Source: Deltaproteobacteria bacterium
GTDB lineage: Bacteria > Desulfobacterota > BSN033 > UBA1163
DNA: 64,000 nucleotides
Direction: 5' to 3'
Assembly (NCBI GenBank): GCA_016875195.1
Contig: VGRY01000006.1
Coordinates: forward strand, 27,541 to 91,540
The notes beneath the pieces are model-generated. The model ran no database searches and was not told the origin of the DNA. It saw nothing but the letters and a program-made list of their open reading frames with translations. The position numbers and the translations under genes are program-made. Positions 1,088 through 61,400 of this stretch are shown here, in pieces. Every line of letters starts with the position of its first letter. Position 1 is the first letter of the stretch.

Positions 1088-1792
1088 TTGCTCTACAAAA
1101 AGACTTCCTACAAACAGCAGATCAAAGCTCTGACCGAAATCAGTAAAGCCATCTCATCGGATAGGTACTTAGACGATATTTTAAAACTGATCGTAACAGT
1201 CACGGCCAATGTGATGGACTCAAAGATATGTTCTCTCTGGCTTCTCGATGAGGAAGAGAAGGCTCTCAAAATCCGTGCCACACAGACCATGAGCGAGGAA
1301 TATCTTAAGGAAAGGAGCCTGAAATTAGGCGAGGGTGTGGTGGGTTATGTGGCCCAGACCAAAAAACCCCTGGCCATTCTCGATGTCTTGAAGGAGCCAC
1401 GGTATAAGGAAAAAGAGCTGGCCCAGAAGGAGAGCCTGGTATCCATGATCAGCGTTCCGCTGGCCGTAAAAGATAAAGTGATCGGAGTGATCAACTGTTA
1501 TACTTCTTACTCCCATCAATTTACCGAGGCTGAGAAGGAGATGCTCACCGCTGTTGCCAGTCAGGCTGCCATCTGTATTGAGAGCGCAGAGCTGATGGTA
1601 AAAACCAAGGTCATCCAGGAAGAACTGGAGATCCGAAAACTGGTGGAGAGAGCCAAGGGGATTTTAATGAAACGGCATGGGCTGAACGAAGAAGAAGCGT
1701 TCAAACGAATCCGGAAAGCCAGCATGGACAGCCGGAAGACCATGCGCGACATTGCCGAAGCAATCCTCCTCACCGATAAAATGGGAGGATAG
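1088..1792 (+). CDS. One-component GAF-ANTAR RNA-binding antitermination regulator
   Basis: N-terminal GAF domain (residues ~14-170). C-terminal ANTAR signature EELEIRKLVERAKGILMKRHGLNEEEAFKRIRKASMDSRKTMRDIAEAIL. No receiver domain. Confidence 0.88.
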   Translation: MLYKKTSYKQQIKALTEISKAISSDRYLDDILKLIVTVTANVMDSKICSLWLLDEEEKALKIRATQTMSEEYLKERSLKLGEGVVGYVAQTKKPLAILDVLKEPRYKEKELAQKESLVSMISVPLAVKDKVIGVINCYTSYSHQFTEAEKEMLTAVASQAAICIESAELMVKTKVIQEELEIRKLVERAKGILMKRHGLNEEEAFKRIRKASMDSRKTMRDIAEAILLTDKMGG

Positions 1793-12021: not shown

Positions 12022-12030
12022 GGAATTAAT

Positions 12031-12085
12031 CAATACAGTGGTGTATTGAGGACAAAGGGGTCGAAGAAATTCGGCCCCTTTTTTT
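12031..12085 (+). promoter_or_regulatory. ANTAR-type dual-hairpin antiterminator / intrinsic terminator module, copy 1
   Basis: P1 CAATAC-AGTGGT-GTATTG at 12031-12048. P2 GAC-AAAGGG-GTC at 12051-12062. Terminator GGGGTCGAA-gaaa-TTCGGCCCC at 12057-12078 plus T7. The terminator 5' arm overlaps the 3' half of P2. Confidence 0.75.
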
Positions 12086-12138
12086 ATACAAAGGGGTATC
12101 CGCGACAGGGGCGTCCAAGGAATGGGCTCCCTTTTTTT
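12086..12138 (+). promoter_or_regulatory. ANTAR-type antiterminator/terminator module, copy 2
   Basis: P1 ATAC-AAAGGG-GTAT at 12086-12099. P2 GAC-AGGGGC-GTC at 12104-12115. Terminator stem 12109-12131 (8 bp with one C/T mismatch) plus T7 at 12132-12138. Confidence 0.65.
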
Positions 12139-12144
12139 ATTTGA

Positions 12145-12194
12145 TACAATGGAGTACGAAAGACAAAGGTGTCAAAGCAAGTTGGTTCTTTTTT
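12145..12194 (+). promoter_or_regulatory. Degenerate third copy of the module
   Basis: P1 TAC-AATGGA-GTA at 12145-12156. P2 GAC-AAAGGT-GTC at 12162-12173. T-run at 12189-12194, but I could not draw a convincing terminator stem. Confidence 0.4.
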
Positions 12195-12224
12195 ATCCAT
12201 TTACTGAAAAGGAGGAACTATAAA

Positions 12225-13877
12225 ATGAGCTTTGCCAAACCGAATAGAAGTCCAGCGACCTTTACCAAAAATCGAGTCGAGCCAGCCCCGCAATCGGGAA
12301 TCTGCGTGACCTGTCTGGATGGCTGCCCGGGTCCCTGTGAAGTGGGTCGGTCTGCCTTGAGGGGAAGAGAGGTTCTGTACCCTCAGCCCTATTCCAAGAT
12401 AACGGCCGGGTCTGAAAAGGATTACCCGGTTGACTTGTCCCATTTTAATATCCAGGGAACCTGTGTGGGAGCGATTGGGGTGAACGCTGATTCAGATCAT
12501 GCGACCTTTCCTGCCGTCGATGTTTCAACACAGGTGGGAGCGAAGGAAAAGATCAAAATGAAAGTCCCCTACTTTACGGGTGCCCTGGGTTCAACCGACA
12601 TTGCCCGGATCCACTGGGAATCAATGGCCATTGCAGCCGCTATTTCAGGGACACTGGTCGTGGTGGGAGAAAATGTCTGCGGAATGGATCCCAATTCTGA
12701 ACTTAAAAATGGCCGTGTGGTCCATTCTCCAGAGTTGGAGCGGCGCGTCAACATATTCCAACAGTGGTATGATGGATATGGTGGAATTGTTGTCCAGTAC
12801 AATGTAGAAGATGGTCGCCTCGGGGTTCCAGAATATGCTGTTGAAAAATTGGGCGTCCAGATCATCGAGCCAAAATGGGGACAGGGCGCCAAGGATATCG
12901 GCGGCGAGGTCAAACTGCCTTCTCTTGAAAGAGCGCAGCAATTGAAGAGCCGTGGCTATATCGTTTACCCTGACCCTGAAGATCAAGTCATCCAGGAAGC
13001 TTTTAAACAAGGAGATTTTAAAGAATTTGAAAGACACTCAAGATTGGGAATGGTGGATGAAGAAGGCTTTCACAAAGAAGTCGCTCGCCTGAGAAAAATG
13101 GGAGCAAAGTATGTAACCTTGAAGACCGGAGCCTATCGGCCGGCTGATCTGGCACGGGCCGTTAAATACTCTTCCGATGCCCAAATCGACCTTCTCACAG
13201 TCGATGGCGCGGGTGGAGGAACTGGAATGAGTCCCTGGCGGATGATGAACGAGTGGGGAATCCCGACCGTTTACCTCGAAGGCCTTCTTTACCAATACCT
13301 GAAACGATTAGACCAGAGGGGTGCATTCATTCCTGACTGCGCTATGGCAGGAGGACTTGCCCTTGAAGACCATATCTTCAAATCGATCGCCTTGGGCGCA
13401 CCTTATATCAAAGCCATCTGCCTGGGTCGGGCTTCGATGACAGCCGCTATGGTGGGCAATACCATCGGTGAGATGGTTAAAAAGGGAAAGGTCCCCGCTG
13501 ACATTGCCAAATACGGCGCTGATGTCGAACATGTCTTTATCCTGGCTGCTAAGCTGAAGGATAGATTCGGAAAAGATTTTGAACGCATTCCCACGGGAAC
13601 GATCGGAATGCTCACCTATTTTGACCGGTTGAATGCAGGACTTCAACAATTTATGGCTGGAGCTAGAAAATTTGCTCTAAATTATATTTCCAGAAGTGAC
13701 CTCTGCAGTTTAACCCGGGAAGCAGCCTACGTCTCTGGGATTCCTTATGTGATGGATTCGGATAAAGAGGAAGTTGACAATATTTTACGAAAAGGAGACC
13801 ATGTGGAGAAAACCTCCTCGAAAATTCTAAACCTGAACCTCGAGGCCCTCATCAAATCAAAAGCCGTCATGGGTTAA
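12225..13877 (+). CDS. Glutamate synthase-related FMN-binding (GltS central domain family) protein with N-terminal Cys motif
   Basis: Strong SD aaaggagga 9 nt before ATG 12225. CVTCLDGCPGPCEV motif. VPYFTGALGS, QGAKDIGGEVKLP and LLTVDGAGGGTGMSP match GltB FMN-domain motifs. The 12141 TTG start in the ORF track lies inside the leader modules. Confidence 0.85.
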   Translation: MSFAKPNRSPATFTKNRVEPAPQSGICVTCLDGCPGPCEVGRSALRGREVLYPQPYSKITAGSEKDYPVDLSHFNIQGTCVGAIGVNADSDHATFPAVDVSTQVGAKEKIKMKVPYFTGALGSTDIARIHWESMAIAAAISGTLVVVGENVCGMDPNSELKNGRVVHSPELERRVNIFQQWYDGYGGIVVQYNVEDGRLGVPEYAVEKLGVQIIEPKWGQGAKDIGGEVKLPSLERAQQLKSRGYIVYPDPEDQVIQEAFKQGDFKEFERHSRLGMVDEEGFHKEVARLRKMGAKYVTLKTGAYRPADLARAVKYSSDAQIDLLTVDGAGGGTGMSPWRMMNEWGIPTVYLEGLLYQYLKRLDQRGAFIPDCAMAGGLALEDHIFKSIALGAPYIKAICLGRASMTAAMVGNTIGEMVKKGKVPADIAKYGADVEHVFILAAKLKDRFGKDFERIPTGTIGMLTYFDRLNAGLQQFMAGARKFALNYISRSDLCSLTREAAYVSGIPYVMDSDKEEVDNILRKGDHVEKTSSKILNLNLEALIKSKAVMG

Positions 13878-13903
13878 TATTCATCTGTGAGCGAATTGCA
13901 TCA

Positions 13904-13940
13904 GGGGATACTTCCAAGCGAAGTATCCCCTTTTGTTTTT
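13904..13940 (+). terminator. Intrinsic terminator after the GltS-family gene
   Basis: GGGGATACTT-ccaagcg-AAGTATCCCC followed by TTTTGTTTTT. Confidence 0.8.
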
Positions 13941-14032: not shown

Positions 14033-14061
14033 TTGACAAACAATAGGTTTCATATTAAAAG
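14033..14061 (+). promoter_or_regulatory. sigma70-type promoter TTGACA-N17-TAAAAG for gdh
   Basis: TTGACA 14033-14038 and TAAAAG 14056-14061. The predicted TSS coincides with the start of P1 at 14069. Confidence 0.5.
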
Positions 14062-14068
14062 AACATCA

Positions 14069-14120
14069 CAATACAAAGAGGTATTGGAGATCGGGCATCA
14101 AGTTTTTGATGCTTTTTTTT
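14069..14120 (+). promoter_or_regulatory. ANTAR-type antiterminator/terminator module (gdh leader, copy 1)
   Basis: P1 CAATAC-AAAGAG-GTATTG at 14069-14086. P2 GAT-CGGGC-ATC at 14089-14099 has a 5-nt loop. Terminator GCATCAA-gttt-TTGATGC at 14095-14112 plus T8. Confidence 0.7.
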
Positions 14121-14122
14121 AA

Positions 14123-14178
14123 ACGATAAAGCGTCGTATGAATGACAAAGGCGTCAGAGTGAATGGACGCCTTTTTTT
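14123..14178 (+). promoter_or_regulatory. ANTAR-type antiterminator/terminator module (gdh leader, copy 2)
   Basis: P1 ACGA-taaagcg-TCGT at 14123-14137. P2 GAC-AAAGGC-GTC at 14144-14155. Terminator GGCGTC..GGACGCC at 14150-14171 plus T7. Confidence 0.7.
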
Positions 14179-14212
14179 ATCATTAGAATAACATAATAAA
14201 GGAGAACAAGTT

Positions 14213-15460
14213 ATGCCGGAGATGAATCCTTTCATGATTGCTCAGAAGCAACTCGATGTCGCGGCTGAAAGATTAGGCTTGGACCAGGCAACCCATAACC
14301 TTCTTCGCTGGCCCCAGAGAGAACTTCGGGTGACACTTCCTGTGACGATGGATGACGGGAGGGTCCACATTTTTCATGCGTATCGAGTCCAGTACAATAC
14401 GGCCCGGGGACCTGCCAAAGGTGGCCTCCGATGGCATCCGGATGAGACCATAGATACGGTGCGCGCCCTATCAGCCTGGATGACCTGGAAGACAGCAGTG
14501 GTGGATATCCCATTGGGCGGAGGAAAAGGGGGAATCACCTGTAATCCTAAAGGGATGTCTGAAGCTGAGAAACAACGTTTGGCTCGTGCCTATATTCGTG
14601 CAGTTGCACCGATCCTATCCATCTCCAAAGATGTTCCAGCCCCGGATGTCTATACGACACCACAGATCATGGCTTGGATGATGGATGAATATGAAACGAT
14701 CGTGGGACATCATCATCCCGGTGTGATTACAGGAAAACCAATTCCCCTTGGAGGATCTGAAGGTCGGGGAGACGCAACCGCAAGGGGTGGCGTTTATGTC
14801 ACACGGGAAGCAGCCAAAGCCTTAAATATCGATCTCCAGGGGAAAACCATGGCCATTCAGGGGTTTGGGAATGCCGGTCAATATGCCGCTCTCCTCGGAG
14901 CCGAGATTCTCGGGTTAAAACTGGTTGCGGCTTCGGATTCCAAAGGGGGCATCTATAATGCCAAGGGGTTAGACCCTAAAAAAGTGGTGGACCACAAATT
15001 AAGAACGGGTAGCCTGGAGAGATTTGCTGAAGCGGAGAAGATAACCAATGAAGAACTCCTGGAGTTGGACGTCACTGTTCTTTTCCCTTCTGCCCTCGAA
15101 AACGTGATTACGGCGGAGAATGCAAATCGAATCAAGTGTAAGATTTCCTGCGAACTCGCCAATGGGCCCTCAACACCCGAGGCCGACGAAATTCTCCATC
15201 AGAACAATGTCTTTGTCCTTCCCGATTTTCTTGCCAATGCGGGAGGGGTCACTGTATCCTATTTTGAGCAAGTTCAAAATGCCTATAATTTTTACTGGCC
15301 ATTGGAGGAAGTCCACGAAAGGCTCAATGAAAAAATGTCACGGGCATTTCACGGAGTCTACCAGATGTACTTAAAGGAGAAGGTTGATATGAGACAGGCC
15401 GCCTATCTCGTTTCGGTGGCAAGGGTGGCAGAAGCCTGCAAGTTGCGGGGATGGGTTTGA
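14213..15460 (+). CDS. gdhA: Glutamate dehydrogenase (Glu/Leu/Phe/Val dehydrogenase family)
   Basis: [21 protein letters not shown] and the Rossmann motif [12 protein letters not shown] aaaggaga upstream. Confidence 0.93.
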
Positions 15461-15617: not shown

Positions 15618-17354
15618 ATGCGGATATTGAGAATTGGGCTCTGTCAGATCAATACGACGGTAGGGGATATCGAAGGCAATACCAAAAAGATCCTCGACTA
15701 TATGGCCAGAGGAAAGCGGATGGGCGCAGACCTTCTGGTTTTTCCGGAGATGGCTGTCACAGGATACCCCCCTGAGGATCTCCTCTTCATGCCGAAGTTT
15801 ATTGAGGCTAACCTGAAAGCGATCAAAAAAATTGCCAGAGCCACTTCCTCGATCACAGCCATTGTCGGATTCGTCCATAAAGAGGGGGATATCTTTAACT
15901 CTGCAGCCCTCCTTCACCATGGCAAATTGATCGATGTCTATTCCAAGGTCTATCTTCCCAACTACGGGGTCTTTGATGAGTTACGATATTTCCACCCCGG
16001 CAAAGAAAATTTCATTTTCACTCTTCAAACCATCCCTATCGGCATCAGCATCTGTGAAGACCTATGGTATCCCGGAGATCCGGTCCGCACTCAAGCCCTC
16101 TACGGGGGAGCCGAACTGATGGTCAATATCTCCTCATCGCCTTATCATTCGGGAAAGACGACATCACGTGAAAAACTGATCTCCACCAGGGCCTCTGACA
16201 ATGTGGCCATCGTTGCCTATTGCAATCTGGTGGGAGGCCAGGATGAATTGGTCTTTGATGGCGGAAGTATGGTTTTTGATCAAAAGGGGGAGTTGGTTGT
16301 TCGGGGGAAACAATTTGAAGAGGATTTGGTCCTGGCGGATCTCGATCTGGAAGCGGTCTTTCGGATGAGGCTCCATGACCCCCGAATCAGAAGAGAGAAA
16401 CTGACCGAGGAAGAAAAATGGATAAAAAAAATTGACCTTCCACATCGAGCCCGTTCAGTAGGAAAAAAGCCGCCTATTCCGAAAAGAGATTCAAGGCCAT
16501 TGGATCACCTCGCTGAAATCTATTCTGCCCTGGTGCTTGGAACAGGAGACTATATCAAAAAAAATGGATTCCAGAAGGTCTTAATTGGCCTCAGTGGCGG
16601 AATTGACTCTGCTTTAACTGCGGCCATCGCAGTGGATGCATTGGGAAAGAAATCCGTGGTGGGAGTGGCAATGCCATCCCAGTATTCTTCGAAAGCCTCT
16701 CTGGAAGACGCAAAACTTCTGGCAAAAAACCTCAGCATTCAATTCCTCACCATCCCCATTGAAGAGGTCTTTGAAGCCTATCTTAAAACGCTCGCCTCAG
16801 CGTTTAAAAAACTAAAACCGGATGCAGCCGAAGAGAATATCCAAGCCCGGATTCGTGGAAATATCCTGATGGCCCTCTCCAATAAGTTTGGCTGGCTCGT
16901 CTTGACCACCGGGAATAAGAGCGAGATGAGCGTAGGCTACTGCACCCTTTACGGAGATATGGCCGGAGGGTATGCGGTTTTAAAGGACGTCCCAAAGACT
17001 CTGGTCTATGAATTAACCGAATATAAAAACAGAAAAGAGGGAAAGGCCATCATCCACCAAAATGTTATCGATAAACCTCCTTCCGCAGAATTGAGGCCAA
17101 ATCAGAAGGATGAGGATTCCCTCCCGCCCTACTCTATTCTTGACCCCATTCTTCAAGCTTATGTGGAAGAAGATAAGGGAGTGGATGAGATTACCAAGAT
17201 GGGGTTTAAAGAGAAAATGATCAAAGAAGTGATTCAGATGGTTGACCGGAATGAATATAAAAGGAGACAGAGCTCACCGGGAGTCAAGATCACCCACCGC
17301 GCCCTCGGAAAAGACCGAAGACTTCCCGTCACCAACAAGTATCGAAATTTTTAG
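15618..17354 (+). CDS. nadE: Glutamine-dependent NAD+ synthetase (CN-hydrolase domain + NAD synthase domain)
   Basis: N-terminal nitrilase-like domain (MRILRIGLCQINTTVGD..FPEMAVTGY..ICEDLW). C-terminal GLSGGIDSA PP-loop and the TGNKSE motif. Confidence 0.92.
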   Translation: MRILRIGLCQINTTVGDIEGNTKKILDYMARGKRMGADLLVFPEMAVTGYPPEDLLFMPKFIEANLKAIKKIARATSSITAIVGFVHKEGDIFNSAALLHHGKLIDVYSKVYLPNYGVFDELRYFHPGKENFIFTLQTIPIGISICEDLWYPGDPVRTQALYGGAELMVNISSSPYHSGKTTSREKLISTRASDNVAIVAYCNLVGGQDELVFDGGSMVFDQKGELVVRGKQFEEDLVLADLDLEAVFRMRLHDPRIRREKLTEEEKWIKKIDLPHRARSVGKKPPIPKRDSRPLDHLAEIYSALVLGTGDYIKKNGFQKVLIGLSGGIDSALTAAIAVDALGKKSVVGVAMPSQYSSKASLEDAKLLAKNLSIQFLTIPIEEVFEAYLKTLASAFKKLKPDAAEENIQARIRGNILMALSNKFGWLVLTTGNKSEMSVGYCTLYGDMAGGYAVLKDVPKTLVYELTEYKNRKEGKAIIHQNVIDKPPSAELRPNQKDEDSLPPYSILDPILQAYVEEDKGVDEITKMGFKEKMIKEVIQMVDRNEYKRRQSSPGVKITHRALGKDRRLPVTNKYRNF

Positions 17355-44625: not shown

Positions 44626-48879
<4,254 letters not shown>

Positions 48880-49574: not shown

Positions 49575-49893
49575 TTGCTTATTGGCTTTATGCTTCTGTC
49601 AGTTGTACCCATCAACGCATTGTAATATACACCATTTAAAAAATATTTTGAAGTAAATATTTCAGAAAGAAATTTACAGATCCGAATTTCCATTAGATAG
49701 TAGAAATTTATAAGCAGATTACCCTCTCAACGGCTGAGTCAGGTTTCTTCTTTAGGTTCGTAGACGTCCAACGTTAAATCATTAGGGTTATTTTTTTAGA
49801 TAATCAATACCAAAATGGAATTTCCAAAAGATTCCCTGTTTATAACAAATGGATTTATCCAATCCTCCGAAATTCTTTTCCGAAATTCTTTTC

Positions 49894-49922
49894 TTGACTT
49901 AAATAGGAATCTATATTAGAAA
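49894..49922 (+). promoter_or_regulatory. sigma70-type promoter TTGACT-N17-TAGAAA
   Basis: TTGACT 49894-49899 and TAGAAA 49917-49922. The predicted TSS at ~49929 abuts P1. Preceded by a perfect 13-nt tandem duplication at 49867-49892. Confidence 0.5.
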
Positions 49923-49929
49923 TATTAAA

Positions 49930-49983
49930 AATACGAAGCTGTATTGGGGACGAGGGCGTCAAGGTTTATTGACGCCTTTTTTT
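49930..49983 (+). promoter_or_regulatory. ANTAR-type antiterminator/terminator module (kinase operon leader)
   Basis: P1 AATAC-GAAGCT-GTATT at 49930-49945. P2 GAC-GAGGGC-GTC at 49949-49960. Terminator GGCGTCAA-ggttta-TTGACGCC at 49955-49976 plus T7. Confidence 0.75.
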
Positions 49984-50201
49984 ATCCGCCTACGCAGAAG
50001 ACCACCCCGCTCAGCGGGATGGATGAATGCGCATAATTGCCAAAGTAAGTTATGGGTTTATAAATTACTGCTTCGGCGGATTTCGCTGAAGGCGGATAAC
50101 CCTCCGAAGCCTTGGCGTAGGAGGGTATCTTTATGGAGATACTACGAGCTTTGCCCGTGGGGCTCCATCGGTAGCCACTGGCCCAGCGGGTCAACAGTAG
50201 A

Positions 50202-51929
50202 ATGGGATCAATTGGATTGAATAAAAAAAATTCAATTCCCGATGCGAAAGAGATCAATGCTTTGCTTGAGATCAGTAAAGCCATCGCTTCGGGTCTCTAT
50301 CTCGAGGATGTCCTTCGTCTGATCGTGACGGTGACCGCTAATGTGATGGACTCGAAGATCTGTTCTCTCTGGATCCTCGATGAAAGAGATCAGAGGTTGA
50401 AATTAAAAGCCACCCAGTCCATCAGCGAAGAATACCTCAGGGAGAGAAGCCTGGCTCTTGGAGAGGGAGTGGTCGGTCATGTCGCCCTTCATAATAAACC
50501 CATGGCCATTGCCAATGTCCTTCAAGACCCTCTCTATAAGGAGAAAGAGTTAGCAAAGAGGGAAGGATTGGTCTCCATGCTCAGCGTGCCAATGTGCATC
50601 AAGGAGAAGGTGATCGGGGTGATCAACTGTTATTCGTCCTCCCCTCGAACCTTTTCGAAGTCGGAAGAGGAGATGCTCTCAACCGTGGCCAATCAGGCTG
50701 CCATCTGCATCGAAAACTCCGGCCTCATGGAAACCCTCGATATCGATGAAATCCTGAGGCTGGTGCTGGAAGGGGTGATCAAGAACATCGGATTTGATCG
50801 GGCACGACTCTATCTGATCAACGAAAAGAGAAATGTCCTTGAATGCAAGATGGCTGTGGGAGTGGATGTGGAGAAGATCAAAGGGATTGAACTCCCTCTT
50901 ACCCTCGAAAGCAGTGTGGTATCGAGGTCTGTGATTGAAAAGAAACCCTATTTCATTCCCGATGCCAGGAATGACCAAAGGGTCAACCCTGTTTTAAAAG
51001 AGAAATTCAATCTTCACTCCCTCGTGGTCATTCCTCTCTTCACAAAAGAAAAAGTTCTCGGGGTGATTGCCGCAGACCATATCGAACCCGGAAGAAGGCT
51101 GACACAGGAAACGCTCGATTCGGTGATGACTTTTGCTCAACAGGCAGGATTGGCCATTCAAAATGCCTCCATGTATCAGGAGCTCAAGAATTTCAGCCAG
51201 CAGATGGAGGAGAAGATTGAAAAGACAACTGCGGACCTCAGAAAAACAGAGGCTCAGTTGATTCGGTCTGAAAAACTGGCAGCCCTGGGTCAACTGGCCG
51301 CAGGCATTGCCCATGAAATCCGAAATCCTCTGACCAGCATCAACATCCTCATTCATTCGATGAGGGAGAAATTGCCCTCTGAACATTCACAGCAGGAAGA
51401 CCTGAAAGTGATCGAAGAGGAAATCTATCGCATGGATGAGATCGTCAGCCAGTTTCTTCGATTCGCAAAACCCGCTTCTCCATTCCTTGAAAAAACAGAT
51501 CCCCTCTCTATTTTTGAGGAGATCCTTCAATTGCTCAGGCCTCAGATAGAAAGGCAACGCATCATGGTTGAAAAGGAGTTCCAAGCCCTTCCTATGATCC
51601 TGATCGACCGTGAGCAGATGAAACAGGCCATGCTCAATCTTCTGCTCAATGCCATCCAGGCCATGCCGAAAGGAGGTCATCTGATCCTTTCAGGTCGGAA
51701 TTCCGAAGATGGCCAATGGGTTTGTCTATCCGTCCAGGACTCCGGAATAGGAATCTCTTCAGAAGACATGGATAAACTGTTCGACCCCTTCTTCTCCACA
51801 AAAGAGGGGGGAATGGGCCTTGGCCTCTCCATCACCCATCGCATCATTGACCAGCATCATGGAAAGATTGAGGTGAATAGCATCCCTGAAAAGGGAACGC
51901 TTTTTACAGTTTGGTTACCTATTTCATGA
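50202..51929 (+). CDS. Sensor histidine kinase: GAF-GAF-HisKA-HATPase_c
   Basis: First GAF is 106/157 identical to the GAF of the ANTAR protein (hand alignment). H-box AHEIRNPLTSI. N/G boxes LLLNAIQAM and DSGIGI..GGMGLGL. Confidence 0.9.
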   Translation: MGSIGLNKKNSIPDAKEINALLEISKAIASGLYLEDVLRLIVTVTANVMDSKICSLWILDERDQRLKLKATQSISEEYLRERSLALGEGVVGHVALHNKPMAIANVLQDPLYKEKELAKREGLVSMLSVPMCIKEKVIGVINCYSSSPRTFSKSEEEMLSTVANQAAICIENSGLMETLDIDEILRLVLEGVIKNIGFDRARLYLINEKRNVLECKMAVGVDVEKIKGIELPLTLESSVVSRSVIEKKPYFIPDARNDQRVNPVLKEKFNLHSLVVIPLFTKEKVLGVIAADHIEPGRRLTQETLDSVMTFAQQAGLAIQNASMYQELKNFSQQMEEKIEKTTADLRKTEAQLIRSEKLAALGQLAAGIAHEIRNPLTSINILIHSMREKLPSEHSQQEDLKVIEEEIYRMDEIVSQFLRFAKPASPFLEKTDPLSIFEEILQLLRPQIERQRIMVEKEFQALPMILIDREQMKQAMLNLLLNAIQAMPKGGHLILSGRNSEDGQWVCLSVQDSGIGISSEDMDKLFDPFFSTKEGGMGLGLSITHRIIDQHHGKIEVNSIPEKGTLFTVWLPIS

Positions 51930-51974
51930 TGACCGATGAACCATCATCTGTTCATCGTATTGAAAGGGGCAAAC

Positions 51975-53414
51975 ATGCAGACGATCCTCATTGTTGACGA
52001 TGATAAATCGATCCGCTACTCTCTGAAAAGGATGCTGGAAGATCATTTTTCCATCCTCACTGCCCAGAATGGAGAAGAAGCCCTATCGCGCATGAAAGAA
52101 TCTTCCCCTGATCTGATCATCATGGATATCAAGATGCCTGGCCGGAACGGAATCGATGTGTTGAAGGAGATGAAGTTCCTTGACCCGAAGTCCCTCATCA
52201 TTCTGATGACCGCCTATGGCACTACAGAGACGGCGATCGAGGCGATGAAATTTGGGGCTTTCGATTACATCCTCAAACCTTTCCCGATTCCACAGATGAA
52301 AGAGTTGGTGCAAAAGGCGATCGCATTGCGGAAACTGATGAAGGAAGAAGTCTCCTATGCATCCGAACCGGATCAACAAAAAGAGGAAGAACAGATCATC
52401 GGTTCCGCTCCCAAGATGCAGGAGATCTATAAGGTGATCGGACAGGTGGCTCCCAGCGATGTCACTGTCCTCCTCAGAGGCGAGAGTGGAACGGGAAAGG
52501 AATTAGTGGCACGTGCAATCTATCACTACAGCCTCCGTTCGAGCTACCCGTTTCTTCCGGTCAATTGTGCTGCCATCCCGGATACCCTTCTCGAAAGTGA
52601 ACTCTTCGGCCATGAAAAAGGAGCTTTTACCGGTGCCATCTCCAGGCGCATCGGAAAACTGGAACAATGTCAGGGAGGGACCATTTTTCTGGATGAAATC
52701 GGTGACATGTCTCTCTCCACTCAGGCCAAACTCCTCAGAATCCTTCAGGAAAAGACTTTTGAAAGGCTTGGGGGAAGGGAAACGCTCAGGGTGGATATTC
52801 GATTTATCGTGGCAACGAATAAAGATCTTGAAGAGGCGATGGTCAGGGGGGAATTTCGTGAAGACCTCTATTACCGGCTCAATGTGGTCTCTATCAAGAT
52901 TCCTCCTTTAAGGGAAAGAAAAGAGGATATCCCGAACCTCACCTCTTACTTCTTAAAAAAATTCAATCGTGATTTAAAGCGGAAGGTCGCCGGGATCACT
53001 CCATCGGCAATGGGAAAAATCACCTCCTACGGATGGCCAGGAAATGTGAGACAATTGGAAAATGTTCTGAAAAGAGCCGTGCTCCTCTGCCAGGGAGAAT
53101 GGATTCTTGATGATCAACTCCTTCTTGATGTAGAAGAGAGACGAGAGGCTGCAGAGGTTCTGAAAGGAAAGACATTCGAGGGCCTACTCGATTCCCTCTT
53201 TATGGAACTCACGGAAACCTCCCCGGACCGGGAAGGTCTGGATATGGTTTCAGCCATTGAGAAAGGGTTGATCCTTCGTGCCCTTCAAAAGACGAACGGA
53301 AACCAGGTTCAGGCAGCTTCGCTTCTCGGAATCAATCGGGGCACGCTCCGGAGCAAAATGGAGCGGTATCACATTAGAAAAGAGGTGCTGGTTTCCGAAG
53401 AGGATAATGAATAA
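51975..53414 (+). CDS. NtrC-family sigma54-dependent response regulator (REC-AAA+-Fis HTH)
   Basis: MQTILIVDDD..DLIIMDIKMPG, GESGTGKE, GAFTGA, and C-terminal AASLLGINRGTLRSKM. ATG 51975 with SD aagggg is preferred over 51936. Confidence 0.9.
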   Translation: MQTILIVDDDKSIRYSLKRMLEDHFSILTAQNGEEALSRMKESSPDLIIMDIKMPGRNGIDVLKEMKFLDPKSLIILMTAYGTTETAIEAMKFGAFDYILKPFPIPQMKELVQKAIALRKLMKEEVSYASEPDQQKEEEQIIGSAPKMQEIYKVIGQVAPSDVTVLLRGESGTGKELVARAIYHYSLRSSYPFLPVNCAAIPDTLLESELFGHEKGAFTGAISRRIGKLEQCQGGTIFLDEIGDMSLSTQAKLLRILQEKTFERLGGRETLRVDIRFIVATNKDLEEAMVRGEFREDLYYRLNVVSIKIPPLRERKEDIPNLTSYFLKKFNRDLKRKVAGITPSAMGKITSYGWPGNVRQLENVLKRAVLLCQGEWILDDQLLLDVEERREAAEVLKGKTFEGLLDSLFMELTETSPDREGLDMVSAIEKGLILRALQKTNGNQVQAASLLGINRGTLRSKMERYHIRKEVLVSEEDNE

Positions 53415-53589: not shown

Positions 53590-53605
53590 TGGCATATTAT
53601 TTGCT
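53590..53605 (+). promoter_or_regulatory. sigma54 promoter TGGCAT-N5-TTGCT upstream of glnA
   Basis: tggcatattatttgct with canonical spacing. The predicted TSS at ~53616 is 4 nt before P1. Confidence 0.75.
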
Positions 53606-53619
53606 ATTAATATTTCGTT

Positions 53620-53684
53620 AATACGATGGGGTATTAGAATGACAAGGGCGTCTTTCTTAAAACGGAGAGACGCCTTTTTATTTT
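53620..53684 (+). promoter_or_regulatory. ANTAR-type antiterminator/terminator module (glnA leader)
   Basis: P1 AATAC-GATGGG-GTATT at 53620-53635. P2 GAC-AAGGGC-GTC at 53641-53652. Terminator GGCGTCTTTC-ttaaaacg-GAGAGACGCC at 53647-53674 plus TTTTTATTTT. Confidence 0.75.
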
Positions 53685-53690
53685 AATAAA

Positions 53691-55429: not shown

Positions 55430-58400
55430 GTGAGCCAGAAGAGAGAAAAGTTAGCCTGGAGAAAGTATATTGAAGATTTTTTACAGCAAAGCCCGGACTT
55501 GAAGGCCATTTCCGACCCAGAGAAACTCGAATACTACCGGAATGACCTCAATGTGGACCTCCCGCCTTTGATCCGGGGCCTGATGCTCAAAAGCCTTCCC
55601 GACCTTATTCTCCAGCCTGCAACTGAAGAACACCTCCTCAATATCTTTGCATTTGCAAGCAAACATAAAATCCCTTTAACCGCCAGGGGCGCGGGAACAT
55701 GGGGTTACGGTGGAGCTGTCCCAACCCGCGGAGGAATTGTTATCGACCTTAGCTCGATGGATACGATTGAGGTTGATCCAGGAACCCTCCAAGTGACAGT
55801 TGGACCGGGAGCTCGTTTTGCCGATATCCACGCAGAACTTGAAAGACACGGCCTCACCTTACTTACCATGACATCCGGCAAGGGCGGAACCCTTGCAGGC
55901 TGGATGGCTACGGGTGGAATGGGATTCGGAACCTATTATCACGGACCAGTAAAGAATCAGATCATTTCCCTGCGGGTCATTACCCCTGATGGAAATGTTC
56001 TGAATCTAAAAGGGGATGATCCTGAGATCAACCATTTCCTCTCAACAGAAGGGCAGATGGGAATCATCGTAAAGGCCATATTGAAGTCTGGGCAAAAACC
56101 AGCCCATTGGTTTCCATTTGTCGTCCCTTTCGAAAAGGCATCTAACGCATATGCATTTGTCAGTAAACTTGACCGCCATCCATTTATCAAACCCCATGAC
56201 CTCATCGTCTATCATGCAGGATTGGCGCGCGTCCTCCAGTCAAAGTCAAATGGAAGATTGACTGTTGGAGATAAACATCTCGTTCTCATTGCCTTCGCTG
56301 ACCAGGAGCAGTCTCAATTGTTTAGACTCTACCTGGATGAGAGTGGAATTCAAATAGCAGATGAGGAATCAGCCTCTTTTCTCTGGGAGGAACGATTCCT
56401 TCCGATATCCATCAAGCACCTCGGCCCTTCTCTCTTAGCGACAGAGGTGATCCTGCCGCTTGATCAAGTGGGAGCCTATGAAGAAAAGATAAGTGAGTGG
56501 GGGAAGCGGTTGGGCTTAACTTTCTATTCCTCTTCCCATCTCATCAATCGAGATCAGGTCCTCTTTCTTGCCATGATCACCTCTGATCACAGGAAGGCCA
56601 TCTTCTACATCGACCTCATGCTCGTTCCGATGATGGTCAGGCTGGCCATTCAGTTTTACAGCGGAAAGCCCTACGGTCTGGGAATATGGAACACGCCTTT
56701 TCTCCGTGACCTCTTTTCAAAAGAAGAAGTGACAAAACTGGTTCAATATAAGAAGAAGGTAGACCCTCATGGAATCCTCAATCCGGGAAAGTTTTTTACT
56801 GTATCTGGAAAACTGGGTCCTCTTCAGAAGATGATCTTTCATTCGGATATCTTCAACCTCGAACTCACCGCGATGAACTGGCTTCTCTTCAAGCTCTTCT
56901 CCATCATTCCTGAGAAGACCCTTAGGCAGCAACTGCCAGCTTCACCCCTGGGGCTTGAAGGGGTTTCAAATGAGGTCAACTCCTGCGCCCAGTGCGGAAA
57001 TTGTGTCTCCCGATGTCCAGTTTATCGGGCAACAAGAGATGAAACCTTCTCAGCGAGAGGCAAACTTCTGACGATCAAGAGGGCAATGGAGACGAAGAAG
57101 ATCGAGCTGTCAAAGGTCTTACCTCTCTACTTCTGTCTCCACTGCGGCCGTTGTGATGAAGAGTGCCAGGTCAACATCAAACATCGCCCACTTTACAGCA
57201 ACCTCGAAGCCCATTTCTCCAGTACCATCGACTTCCCGATCCAGGAGGTGACCCGCTTCATCCAGGAAGTTGAAAATAGTCCGGAGTTCTACCGGTTCCT
57301 CGACGTGATCAGAACGGGGTTCGACCAGAAAGTTCGTGAACAGCGGCAGACGTTCCCCAGGTACCATGTGGCGATTGACGACGAACACTGTATCCATTGT
57401 GGGACCTGCGTCGATGCCTGCATCTACGGTGTTCGAAAACGTGACGAGAAAGATCCACGTTGCGTGGTGATTGCCGATGAAGCGCTCTGCCGGGGCTGCG
57501 GTTCCTGTCTTGAGCGTTGCCCACAGGTCGCCAAAGGAATCCCGGCAACCACTGTGGAACTCCACCCGGATTACCTGAGCATGCACGACCCGTACTGGAC
57601 GAGTGAAGCCATCACCCGTATCGACCTCGAAGCCACCACCGGAAAGATCCCTGTTTCCGGGACTGGACAGGGAGATCCCCATCGCGGTTACGGCAATGAC
57701 GGGATTCGCTTCGGCCACTTTCATATTGTCGGCCCTGCTCAGAACCTCCTCTATGAAAGTTCTGAGGATGCCATCTCGATCCTGATTGGACAAAGGCCAA
57801 AATACCTGACCTTTGACGGGGAAACTCTCAAAACCCCGCCTCCACGGTTGATCCATTTAAAGACACCCCTGATCCTCGATATCATGCCCATGGATGGAGG
57901 AGAAGATCTGTTGGAGCCCATGTTCGAGGCAGTCCAGCAAACAGGAACCCGACTGACGCTCCGCCTCGAAGAGTTGGAACGTTATGAGTCGCGGATTGCC
58001 GATCGGATGAAGAATCTAATATTGAGATTAACTTCTGAAGACTTGAAAAGCCTTCTCAATGGAAAGGCATGGCCGGAGGTGTTGAAAAACAATCCTCCTG
58101 ATCTGGTCGAAATCGAGCTGGAGGGAGAAGCCTTAAAAAAGGCAGAGAAAATTTCAGCGCTCCTCCCGAATTCGGTTCTCTGTGCTGTCATTAAAATTGA
58201 AAAGGGATTTGTTGATGCAGAGCTTCGGCCCACCTCTGCCCTGAAGAAAAAACTGGAGTCCCTCTTCGAATCGCCTTTTGATGCTATCTGCCTCACTTCT
58301 GATTATGATTCAGAAAAAGGGTACTACCCCACTACCGATGCTGTTCCTGCTGTTCACCGTTTTCTCGTAGAAAAGAAAATTCGCCATCGCTTTTCTATCC

Positions 58401-61400
58401 TGGCAGCTGGTGGAATCCGTTCTGCAGCCGATTCTCAGAAAACGATCCAGCGCGGTGCAAATGGGATCAAGATCGATTGGCCGGTCCTTCTGGCTGCCAA
58501 TCCTCAAGCACGACAGAAATTTTCACAGGGAGAGCGCCTCCATCTTCTCCATGATTCCTCCTCCCTAACCAAACGGATCACCCACCTTATTCGGGTCTGG
58601 AATGTCCAGATCATTGAAGTCTTGGGCGCTTCAGGGTTTAAGGATATTAAAAAGACGGTTGGAGAGGAAAACCGTCTCCTCATCTTCGATGACCTCGAAG
58701 AAAGGGTCTATGACATTTTCAAAAACAAAGATTGCATTGAAAGAAACCGTGTGACTAATCTGGCACGTCTCCAGAGGGAAGGCAAAGGTGATGGCTGGAA
58801 ATACAGTCAATTGAAGAATTTGATCAAACCTACTCAATCCCCTCACCGGTTCTATAGCTGCAGCCTGAAGTCTTCCTGTTACCAGATTTTCGACCGCGAT
58901 TATGTCTGGCCAGCCTCTCTGATTGCTTCGGTGGGCCATATGGCAAGTGGAAATCCAGAAACGCTTCAACTTGGCCACACAGAGGAGCGCGGGAATTTAG
59001 GGGATGGTTTTGATTTCATACAGGTCCTCTTTCAACGCAACCCCGATACCCTTTCGGAAGATCTCATTGACCATGTCTCCACCAGTCTTCAGATCAATCC
59101 TGAATTGAGGCTAAAAGCCCCCTTTATTGGAGCAGGAATGTCAGTGGGTTCAATCGGACCTGGAACCTGGCGCGCCCGGGTCCTGGCCACTCGTGCCCTT
59201 GGGACACAGATGGACACGGGTGAAGGAGGATATCCCACTTTCTATATCCTCGATGAAAAGTGGAACTCTATTGATTTGACCGACGCACAGGTTCTCCTGC
59301 TTGGCCAGATCATGGAGCCCCGGAAATTGATTCCCATGGCTGAGTTGATCAGAAAGGTCCAGGAAGAATTGGCAGAATCTCCTGAAATTGAAAAAATTCT
59401 ACAGGTTCTCCAGAAATATCCGGCCTCCAGGACTGTTCAGTTTGTCCCAATCGTCTTGCACGAAGACGAACCTTATGTCTCCACCCAGCTCAAGACAGGT
59501 CTCTTTGGGGTAACCAAGGAGACGATTCGGAAGGCACGTCGTGTGGTAATCGCGTACAGCCAGGGAGCAAAACAGGGTGTGGGCGGTCATCTATTAGGCC
59601 GAAAAGTGTTTGGTCTGGTCTCAAGGCTCCGCGGCGTGGCAGAAGGGGTCAGCCTCATCTCCCCCTTCCCCTTCCATAATTGCTACTCCATTGAAGATGT
59701 GAAGGCCTTCATCGATGCAGTACGCATGATCAACCCGCAGGCCTCGATCTGCATCAAGGTCTCCCCATCGCCTGATATCGAGTTTATCGTCTCCGGGCTC
59801 GCCCGGATTGCCAAGGACAACAGGATGGCCATTGAGGTCTGGCTCGATGGGCCTCGCGGAGGGACAGGTGCAGCCCCAGACATCATCAAGGGTCAGATGG
59901 GAATGCACATCGAATATGCCATCCCCATCTGTCATGAGAAATTGATTAGTGATGGACTGAGAGATAACGTCGTTTTCCTGGGAAGCGGTGGATTTCGCAC
60001 CTGGGGAGATATGGTGAAAGGCATAGCCATGGGGTTGGATGGCATTGTCCTCGGTACCTCTGATCTGGTTGCTATTGGCTGTGTTCGTGACCGCAATTGC
60101 GAGTCAGGATGTCGAAGTGGAATCTCAACGATTGAACCCAAAATGCAATTGCTAAGAGATGTCGGGATCAACACCCAGCAGTTGATCAATTTCCGTGCCA
60201 TCTTACAGGCTCAGGTTGCAAGGGCTGTCGCGGGCCTTGGATTGGAAGACATCCGTGAACTTCGGGGCCGATATGATCTGATTCAATGGCCTGTGCTCGA
60301 AGAAAGGGTCCAGGAGCGTCGTCGCCGTCGTTCTGAGATCTCAATCAAGGAACCGTCACGAATCTATCCCTCTGATTCATTCCCTCATTATACATTGAGC
60401 GAATCAGCACCTCCTCCTTCGGATTGTGGTGTGGCAGCGATCGTCTCCAACCATTTCATCCCGAGCCATGTGATGGACCTGATGCTCGACCGGATGGCAA
60501 ACCGTGGAATGGACGGTGTGGGCATATGGAAAGGAGGATGTTACCCGGCTCATATCGACCACTATGCCTTCCATGTCCTGATTAAAGGGACTCTCCAGCC
60601 TCAGGTTGAAGAAAAATTCTCGTTAGCCCATCCGAACCTGAATTCTGAAGAGGTCCGGCAAATGGCCCGGAGAAAAATTCTCTCTAACCGACGTCTCCTC
60701 ATGCGAGAGATTCTGGAGAAATATTTCTATGGTCTTCAACTCGATTCATTCGATGGGGATCTGGAGAAATGGAGAATTCCGTATAAACGCGATGAAAACG
60801 GAAGGGAGAGAGATTTTCTATATTATGGAGAAAGAGATCCCGGAGATGTTTTCCGGTTCTTTGTCCGCGTCCTGCCGCCCGAACTCTTTCGCTTCATTGA
60901 AGATGAGTTACTCAATGATCCCATTTGGCCCCCACGACAGGTCCGTTACCAACATCTGACCGTTCAAAATTATAGGGAGAATAAGGAATTTCTGCGGGAA
61001 GCTGAGGACGAATATATCTATCGACTCTCACGTAAGATCACTCGTGAGAATTATGTAGAAGCTCACCAGAAGAAGGCATCTGTACTCTCCTGTGGTAAAA
61101 ACTCCGGCTGCTGGAAGACGGATGGTCAACATATCCCATGGGAAACTCCGGATGCTCCGGTCAATGTGATTCATAGACGGCTGGCCACGGGATCTGTGGT
61201 GGATCAGATGAACTCCCATCCTTTTGCCGAACTGCACACAGCATTGACGCATAATGGAGAGACGACGAATTATCGCACCATGTTGAATCGGGTTTCCCAA
61301 ACGAACTTAACACCGCTGGCTCAAACCGACACCGCAGTAGCTTCCCTGAAGCTCCATCTGCTCAGTCAGTATCTCCACTATCCCTTTGATGCCCTGGTAG

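Follow-up and report, generated by a model that had tools for sequence, protein, structure and literature searches.

ANTAR target sites have been described by Ramesh et al. 2012 (PMC3369931) as a pair of stem-loops, P1 and P2, both with a hexaloop conserved at positions 1 and 4, of which P2 and a transcription terminator exclude each other. The archetype is EutV of Enterococcus faecalis with the eutP, eutG, eutS and eutA leaders (PMC3369931; structure PMC8934654), and in E. faecalis EutV-dependent induction is sensitive to the closing pairs and to positions 1 and 4 of the loop (PMC3369931). ANTAR motifs cluster before nitrogen genes, including those for glutamine synthetase (GS) and glutamate synthase (GOGAT), with up to 13 elements in six transcription units of one genome (PMC3369931). 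Here we describe the leader of a glutamate dehydrogenase (GDH) gene, gdh, in a 64,000-nucleotide (nt) stretch of a Deltaproteobacteria bacterium genome (contig VGRY01000006.1, positions 27,541 to 91,540; hereafter the window). A first-pass annotation had described this leader as two stacked copies of one riboregulatory module. That module is what we here call an ANTAR dual-hairpin target, a name the annotation did not use. The gdh leader is likely to work as a transcription attenuator of the ANTAR type, in which two termination checkpoints follow one another.

The leader and its promoter lie in a 340-nt gap that separates the stop codon at 13877 of a GltS-like gene (12225-13877, plus strand) from the gdh ATG at 14213. 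Its elements are as follows, with stems measured in base pairs (bp):

14033-14061, plus strand: sigma-70-like promoter, found by eye, with a -35 box TTGACA at 14033-14038 and an AT-rich, poor -10 box at about 14053-14061
14069-14086, plus strand: module 1 P1, CAAUAC-AAAGAG-GUAUUG, a canonical hexaloop with A1 and G4 (-3.6 kcal/mol)
14089-14099, plus strand: module 1 P2', GAU-CGGGC-AUC, 3 bp with a deviant 5-nt loop
14094-14120, plus strand: terminator 1, stem 14094-14101/14106-14113 followed by eight U (-9.2 kcal/mol; also in the terminator scan)
14123-14137, plus strand: module 2 P1', ACGA-UAAAGCG-UCGU, with a 7-nt loop that ViennaRNA reduces to 5 nt by closing a U.G pair
14144-14155, plus strand: module 2 P2, GAC-AAAGGC-GUC, a canonical hexaloop and the commonest P2 of the family
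14147-14178, plus strand: terminator 2, stem AAAGGCGUC/GACGCCUUU (14147-14155/14166-14174), 10-nt loop and seven-U run at 14172-14178 (-12.1 kcal/mol)
14198-15460, plus strand: ribosome-binding site AAAGGAG (14198-14204) and gdh (ATG 14213, 415 amino acids; Pfam ELFV_dehydrog and ELFV_dehydrog_N, best NCBIfam match GdhA)

Sequence inspection, folding and a terminator scan placed the elements of the first-pass annotation where it had put them or within a few bases. Terminator 2 is absent from the scan only because its loop is 10 nt long. The P1 stem CAATAC/GTATTG is identical to the one at 12031-12048, as the annotation had said. For the second module it had given P2, GAC-AAAGGC-GUC, which lies at 14144-14155, and no P1; the best candidate is ACGA-TAAAGCG-TCGT at 14123-14137. 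As to its placement of P1 at the transcription start, the -35 box TTGACA and its spacing to P1 are kept in nine orthologous gdh leaders, but the -10 box is poor. The promoter at 14033-14061 received no call in the promoter scan; we infer the start, and it is plausible that the gdh transcript begins with P1 (14069).

In both modules, P2 and the terminator are mutually exclusive. The loop and 3' arm of module 1 P2' form the 5' half of terminator 1 (14094-14099 common to both), and the loop and 3' arm of module 2 P2 form the 5' half of terminator 2 (14147-14155 common to both). P2 has bases in common with a terminator in every module, which supports the antitermination proposed in the first-pass annotation. 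Because the P2 loop and 3' arm make up the 5' half of the terminator stem, binding of P2 would block the terminator. The whole leader is more stable than shuffled versions (z = -4.3, 0/200), and when the growing transcript was folded stepwise, module 2 P1' and P2 were the minimum-energy structure until the 3' arm of the terminator emerged. Terminator 1 is weaker than terminator 2, with three G-C pairs. By themselves all P2 hairpins are marginal, at 0 to -0.7 kcal/mol compared with -9 to -20 kcal/mol for the terminators, and readthrough must therefore rely on a protein.

The fold of lowest energy for the full leader in the absence of protein contains a helix of GUCGU (14133-14137) with AUGAC (14142-14146), a pairing that hides the P1' 3' arm and the P2 5' arm of module 2 together. 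This helix (14133-14146) could be a default anti-antiterminator, or it could be a chance pairing.

A relaxed scanner (any 3-bp stems, G at loop position 4, and a U-run) missed both gdh modules through their odd loops, and we used a covariance model instead. This model, R1, rests on 69 modules from metagenomes, none of them a window sequence, and was run over the 64 kb with filters off. It returned exactly seven matches, each of them plus-strand and within a leader, and the next match had E > 1:

53618, plus strand: glnA module, 45.3 bits
12030, plus strand: GltS-like module, 42 bits
49928, plus strand: module of an operon encoding a histidine kinase with GAF domains (GAF-kinase), 39.2 bits
14068-14100, plus strand: gdh module 1, 27.7 bits, E 2e-5
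12141, plus strand: GltS-like module, 25.5 bits
12083, plus strand: GltS-like module, 25.2 bits
14127-14156, plus strand: gdh module 2, 17.1 bits, E 0.013

Because R1 finds all seven and then nothing below E = 1, both gdh units belong with the module at 12031 in one family. The score of gdh module 1 comes almost entirely from P1, and that of gdh module 2 mainly from P2, its P1' half being poor. Thus the two copies are indeed members of the same family, but they are unequal, since the P1 of module 2 is damaged. Where 0.1 copies of the sequence GACARRGGNGTC would be expected in the window, there are five, every one of them in a leader. A search of Rfam 15 gave best E values of 2-9 for the two leaders searched, far under the gathering scores, and returned nothing at the gathering threshold for the whole window.

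The same motif recurs in metagenomes. We scanned with the pattern AATAC-NNNGNN-GTATT-N1-8-GAC-NNNGNN-GTC, which fixes the core stems and places deviant modules outside the sample. The scan gave 125 matches, and a U-run follows 85 of these; with a pattern of 18 bases, some matches would arise by chance. The next gene was an orthologue of the GltS-like gene (33 leaders), gdh (20), glnA (11) or nadE (2), and in dozens of these metagenome orthologues the motif arrangement stands at a fixed distance from promoter and start codon. The equation of the gdh module with the one at 12031, made in the first-pass annotation, is thus upheld by R1 and by this distribution before GltS-like, gdh and glnA orthologues.

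At the loop positions left free by the pattern, a purine occupies position 1 in 71/72 distinct modules and A occupies position 2 in 67/72. By these free-position statistics, the loop consensus R-A-N-G-N-N agrees with the A1/G4 rule of ANTAR targets (PMC3369931). The outer P1 pair, which the pattern did not fix, covaries (CG 35, UA 13, AU 5, UG 3), and none of 500 shuffles reached its score. Covariation of the core stems is not assessable in a pattern-selected set because the pattern fixed those stems; in secondary modules, the UAC/GUA and GAC/GUC stems mostly keep their sequence and show few compensatory changes. Structural support for the motif comes mainly from the outer P1 pair.

Other arrangements were seen among the loci fetched for comparison, which are numbered with the prefix L. 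The motifs before nadE, a glutamine-dependent NAD synthetase gene, are in L105 and L146; the nadE of the window (15618-17354) comes after gdh and has no module of its own. A glmM-like gene (its product has a phosphoglucosamine mutase-like N-terminus) follows the motif in L092, L162, L139 and L197, and small membrane proteins of about 100-126 amino acids follow it in L083, L099, L113, L129, L159 and L172. Some second modules consist of P2 and a terminator with no recognisable P1 (e.g. tttttttgtatcaatGACAAAGGCGTC), as at L098 3202-3222, L186 1869-1889 and L177 644-667.

The gdh leader of the window is an unusual member of this family. Among the 20 gdh leaders recovered from metagenomes, 17 have one canonical module, about 37 nt past TTGACA and about 53 nt before the ATG. 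Two modules are found in the window and in a relative, L193, that is 92-94% identical, and alignment with single-module gdh orthologues places a 52-nt extra unit in the two-module leader, indicating that the window lineage gained this unit. The identical gdh leader is present, with no variation, in five contigs from three Joint Genome Institute lake metagenomes and two sequencing runs (exact-protein look-up). Among gdh relatives from the genome collection, the motif is present in the closest genome, L001, only; the upstream regions of L002-L013, L017, L019 and L027 are unrelated. Because L001 alone among these relatives has the motif, its association with gdh is specific to the lineage and is not a property of gdh.

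Hexaloops are present in module 1 P1 (AAAGAG) and module 2 P2 (AAAGGC) and not in module 1 P2 or module 2 P1. P2 loops are hexaloops in 97 of 100 distinct modules of the family, and the module 1 P2s of the window and L193 are the only genuine non-hexaloop P2s among them, so the first P2, singled out for its 5-nt loop by the first-pass annotation, is deviant in this lineage only. L193 keeps the loop (GAT-CGGGC-GTC), with the stem held by a change from U-A to U.G. Folded alone, the P2' of the window has no stability (0.0 kcal/mol); an alternative register, G-AUCGGG-C, gives a hexaloop with one closing pair. In module 2, the L193 P1 is a canonical AUAC-AGCGUC-GUAU hairpin. Two substitutions in the window relative to L193 remove its C-G closing pair and favour another hairpin of 4 bp with a 7-nt loop (UAAAGCG), in which AAAGCG follows one extra U and no hexaloop forms. 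The rule of a purine at position 1 and G at position 4 is satisfied in the two canonical gdh loops, and CGGGC lacks a purine at position 1 except in the alternative reading AUCGGG. Since each gdh module is only half canonical, membership of the gdh leader in the dual-hairpin family rests on homology to canonical orthologous leaders. The 2-nt linker between P1 and P2 of module 1 is typical for the whole lineage.

A candidate for the protein that reads these modules is encoded near the start of the window:

1088-1792, plus strand: GAF-ANTAR one-component protein, 234 amino acids (Pfam ANTAR 1.1e-22, GAF 1.3e-21)

Its C-terminal ANTAR domain exceeds the family cut-off of PF03861 (80 bits, cut-off 27.3) and matches the PDB structures of Rv1626, a EutV-type regulator (6wsh), NasR and AmiR; no second ANTAR domain was found by tblastn in the 64-kb window. 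Orthologues of this protein, 80-88% identical, are encoded directly upstream of a motif leader in about 25 fetched loci (local tblastn). The gene after the GAF-ANTAR gene and motif is gdh in L001, L098, L106, L133, L153 and L192, and GltS-like in L102, L167, L179 and L081. We conclude that the GAF-ANTAR protein is likely to be the cognate antiterminator of the modules.

The GAF part of this protein is closest to PtsP/EI-Ntr (PDB 3trc, 7.5e-16; NCBIfam PRK11061, 1e-21) and to NifA (7e-17). The GAF domains of PtsP/EI-Ntr and NifA are established sensors of nitrogen status, and NifA senses 2-oxoglutarate. Binding of glutamine by the GAF domain of EI-Ntr has been reported (PMC4848567). This kinship, and the linkage of the GAF-ANTAR gene to the motif, are in keeping with the common nitrogen-status input for the gdh and GltS-like genes that the first-pass annotation had proposed. 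The GAF domain is also 65% identical to the first GAF domain (50217-50729) of the histidine kinase at 50202, whose operon also encodes an NtrC-like sigma-54 activator. One sensor domain thus appears to have been duplicated onto two outputs. The pairing of GAF-ANTAR protein and GAF-kinase recurs in L001, L090, L133, L179 and others. A literature search found no characterised GAF-ANTAR protein (PMC3369931, PMC7496416).

Three further leaders in the window have modules of this family:

12030-12196, plus strand: three stacked modules before the GltS-like gene, found by R1, with terminators of -18.7, -12.9 and -2.1 kcal/mol
49928-49985, plus strand: one module and terminator before an operon encoding the GAF-histidine kinase and a sigma-54 response regulator, found by R1 and folding
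53591-53690, plus strand: glnA leader, with a sigma-54 -24/-12 promoter TGGCAT-N5-TTGCT (53591) followed by one canonical module and a terminator of -20 kcal/mol

At 12165-12196, the third GltS-like module is followed by a very weak terminator, the equivalent of which in L147 has a clean GGCGTC/GACGCC stem; the weakness is another sign of module decay in the window strain. The module at 49928-49985 comes directly after a TTGACT promoter and is followed by an unexplained 5' untranslated region of about 215 nt (49860-50201 being the whole upstream segment); the operon itself spans 50202-53414, and an antiterminator acting here would gate the GAF-kinase/NtrC-like two-component system. The window is a dense nitrogen-regulation island, with amtB (44626-45933) and a gene for a GlnD-like uridylyltransferase (46357-48879) also in it, neither with a module. 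Downstream of glnA is a 2531-amino-acid open reading frame (55430-63025), again with no module before it. It contains FAD_binding_4, 4Fe-4S, glutamate synthase FMN, GATase and GXGXG domains in an unusual order, and its product looks like a giant rearranged glutamate-synthase-like protein.

We propose the following mechanism. Transcription would start at or just before P1 (14069), and by default the nascent leader would fold into the terminator at 14094-14120 and then into that at 14147-14178, yielding short transcripts. When active, an antiterminator dimer, most likely of the GAF-ANTAR protein, would bind P1 and P2 of a module through the loop consensus R-A-N-G-N-N; with P2 held, the terminator could not form and polymerase would read into gdh. 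With two checkpoints in series, the basal level would be lower and the response to the regulator steeper. Attenuation by the two might be multiplicative, and the first copy might bind more weakly, as the first-pass annotation had raised. Because both gdh modules are weakened, gdh readthrough should need more active regulator than that of the GltS-like gene or glnA, or else should be low. The three modules before the GltS-like gene, the one behind the sigma-54 promoter of glnA and that of the GAF-kinase/NtrC-like operon would convey the same signal. This arrangement would make the glutamate/glutamine node answer to one input; the PtsP/NifA-like GAF domain would probably sense glutamine and/or 2-oxoglutarate.

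The sigma-54 promoter and module of glnA suggest induction under nitrogen limitation; co-induction of GDH, nadE and glmM under that condition is not an obvious fit. As a tentative wider model, to which we give somewhat less than even weight, the GAF-ANTAR protein would read glutamine or 2-oxoglutarate, directly antiterminate GS, the GltS-like gene and GDH (in relatives also nadE and the glmM-like gene), and gate the paralogous GAF-kinase/NtrC-type sigma-54 operon. Output would be set by the number and quality of stacked modules, one to three per leader, with the gdh half-sites deliberately weakened.

Several points weigh against reading the gdh leader as two ANTAR checkpoints in series. One hairpin in each gdh module departs from the hexaloop rule, and because loop and closing-pair mutations abolish induction by EutV (PMC3369931), one or both checkpoints may not respond. 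The module 1 linker is 2 nt, against a working range of 5-12 nt for EutV (PMC3369931). The -10 box of the gdh promoter is weak, which makes the transcription start uncertain, and the GAF-ANTAR and gdh genes of the window are not neighbours, being about 12 kb apart. R1 comes from the same lineage, and its matches show membership of the lineage motif, not of ANTAR targets in general; an ANTAR-target family is absent from Rfam, leaving none to test against. A rival reading is a variant of the same ANTAR system with a single regulated checkpoint. Terminator 1 would then be a constitutive leaky attenuator or a decaying relic that lowers basal gdh expression, and only module 2 would respond, or neither module in the window strain. 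A P2 in module 1 whose loop length is unique among 100 modules and which has no stability alone fits this variant, as do an R1 score for module 1 that is nearly all P1 and the lower strength of terminator 1 (-9.2 kcal/mol, three G-C pairs). The two substitutions in module 2 P1 relative to L193 also destroy the closing C-G pair, a kind of change that, like loop changes, abolishes EutV induction (PMC3369931). However, the deviant pairing of module 1 P2 is kept in L193 through the change from U-A to U.G, and so is its overlap with the terminator. A perfect P1 is retained right before the deviant P2 in both strains, although a plain terminator needs none, and the other register of P2 offers an AUCGGG loop with A1 and G4. 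We regard a single regulated checkpoint as unlikely, if still a serious contender.

The two-checkpoint ANTAR attenuator also has to be weighed against readings in which no ANTAR protein is involved. The hairpins might be read by some other factor, such as a riboswitch ligand, an antiterminator of the CAT/PRD, PyrR, TRAP or HutP type, or a ribosome translating a leader peptide, and the distance between gdh and the GAF-ANTAR gene in the window would suit such a reading. Yet no Rfam family matches the leader or the window, a module of about 33 nt with two hairpins of 3-6 bp is too small for known aptamers, and R-A-N-G-N-N in two hairpins fits the ANTAR rule (PMC3369931). An ANTAR gene is moreover linked to the motif in about 25 loci. 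Leader-peptide attenuation of gdh was rejected: the sole mini-open reading frame of the leader, 17 codons with an ATG at 14138, lacks a Shine-Dalgarno sequence, and L193 does not conserve it. We consider any factor outside the ANTAR class very improbable here. That the terminators and hairpins should be there by chance or as dispersed repeat DNA, with no role in regulation, strikes us as scarcely credible. The relaxed scan for hairpin pairs was admittedly unspecific, with 33 observed against about 12 in shuffles (range 4-21), but R1 matches fall only in leaders of nitrogen-related transcription units, all on the coding strand, and the same arrangement is conserved across dozens of metagenome orthologues.

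Two further candidate readings were tried and rejected. The leader terminators do not serve as those of the GltS-like gene, which has its own strong terminator at 13903-13931 (terminator scan), 5' of the gdh promoter. A single dimer bridging P1 (14069) and the P2 at 14144 would have to span 57 nt with terminator 1 in between.

The mechanism class to which we assign the gdh leader is already known from EutV, NasR, AmiR, GnfR and the predicted Desulfotomaculum and Pelobacter regulons, and stacked elements have precedent. What appears to be new is gdh as a target, a GAF-ANTAR protein as regulator, a linker of 2-3 nt, near-invariant stems and the stacking of two half-canonical modules. The lineage brings together a GAF-ANTAR protein, a clearly defined RNA site (AC-RANGNN-GU twice) and a class of plausible ligands, a combination that is clean and testable. 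It is unusual for gdh to share one positive signal with glnA and a GOGAT-like gene. In Geobacter and enterobacteria, gdh is regulated oppositely to the genes of nitrogen limitation. The placement of gdh bears on the balance between GDH and GS-GOGAT in the anaerobes of this lake lineage, and the natural series of one, two and three stacked modules, some of them degenerate, bears on the possible tuning of thresholds by stacking.

Tandem riboswitches and attenuators likewise place complete sensor-terminator units in series, from which a sharper response or a lower basal level is expected. Tandem riboswitches are ligand-binding RNAs; here the sensor would be a protein, and the two gdh units are unequal and partly degenerate. 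The EutV targets of E. faecalis are closer. They too have two short hexaloop stem-loops with a purine at position 1 and G at position 4, a P2 that excludes the terminator, and several leaders per genome (PMC3369931). The candidate regulator differs in being a one-component GAF-ANTAR protein and not a phosphorylated REC-ANTAR protein. The RNA differs in its linker, 2-3 nt in this lineage against 5-12 nt in eut, in the additional conservation of A at loop position 2, and in stems that are nearly invariant, UAC/GUA and GAC/GUC (AC-RANGNN-GU in both hairpins). The gdh modules differ further in that one hairpin of each departs from the hexaloop rule.

In the targets chosen, the nearest parallels are the predicted regulons of Desulfotomaculum acetoxidans, D. 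reducens, Pelobacter carbinolicus and Carboxydothermus, in which motifs precede glutamine synthetase and glutamate synthase or glutamate synthase-like genes (PMC3369931, Fig. 9, Table S2). D. acetoxidans, with 13 elements in six units, also provides the precedent for stacking (PMC3369931). Unlike in our window, glutamate dehydrogenase is not a target in the portion of the supplementary target tables of PMC3369931 available to us, and those regulons have no regulator assigned (PMC3369931).

In the layering of control, the locus resembles two characterised systems. NasR, acting on the nasF leader of Klebsiella oxytoca, is likewise a one-component sensor-ANTAR protein, and nasF combines an NtrC/sigma-54 promoter with leader antitermination, as does the glnA leader at 53591-53690 (PMC12591593; PMC7496416). 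The NasR sensor, unlike the GAF domain here, is a nitrate-binding NIT domain, and its leader has a single module and serves nitrate assimilation. GnfK/GnfR of Geobacter sulfurreducens (Ueki and Lovley 2010, PMC2995071) also uses an ANTAR regulator that acts on leader terminators of nitrogen genes, and GnfR is layered on GnfL/GnfM, a two-component system with a sigma-54/enhancer-binding protein (PMC2995071), much as in the glnA leader described here. The GnfR element CAGGCAANGGCGCC resembles the P2/terminator junction GAC-AAAGGC-GUC of our modules. GnfR belongs to the REC-ANTAR response regulators; in the window protein GAF stands in place of REC before ANTAR, and this protein is not a member of the GnfK/GnfR system, although by analogy it may work in the same way. 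In Geobacter, gdhA is controlled at initiation by GnfM, without antitermination, and is repressed during nitrogen fixation (PMC2995071), whereas the gdh of the window shares the leader signal of glnA.

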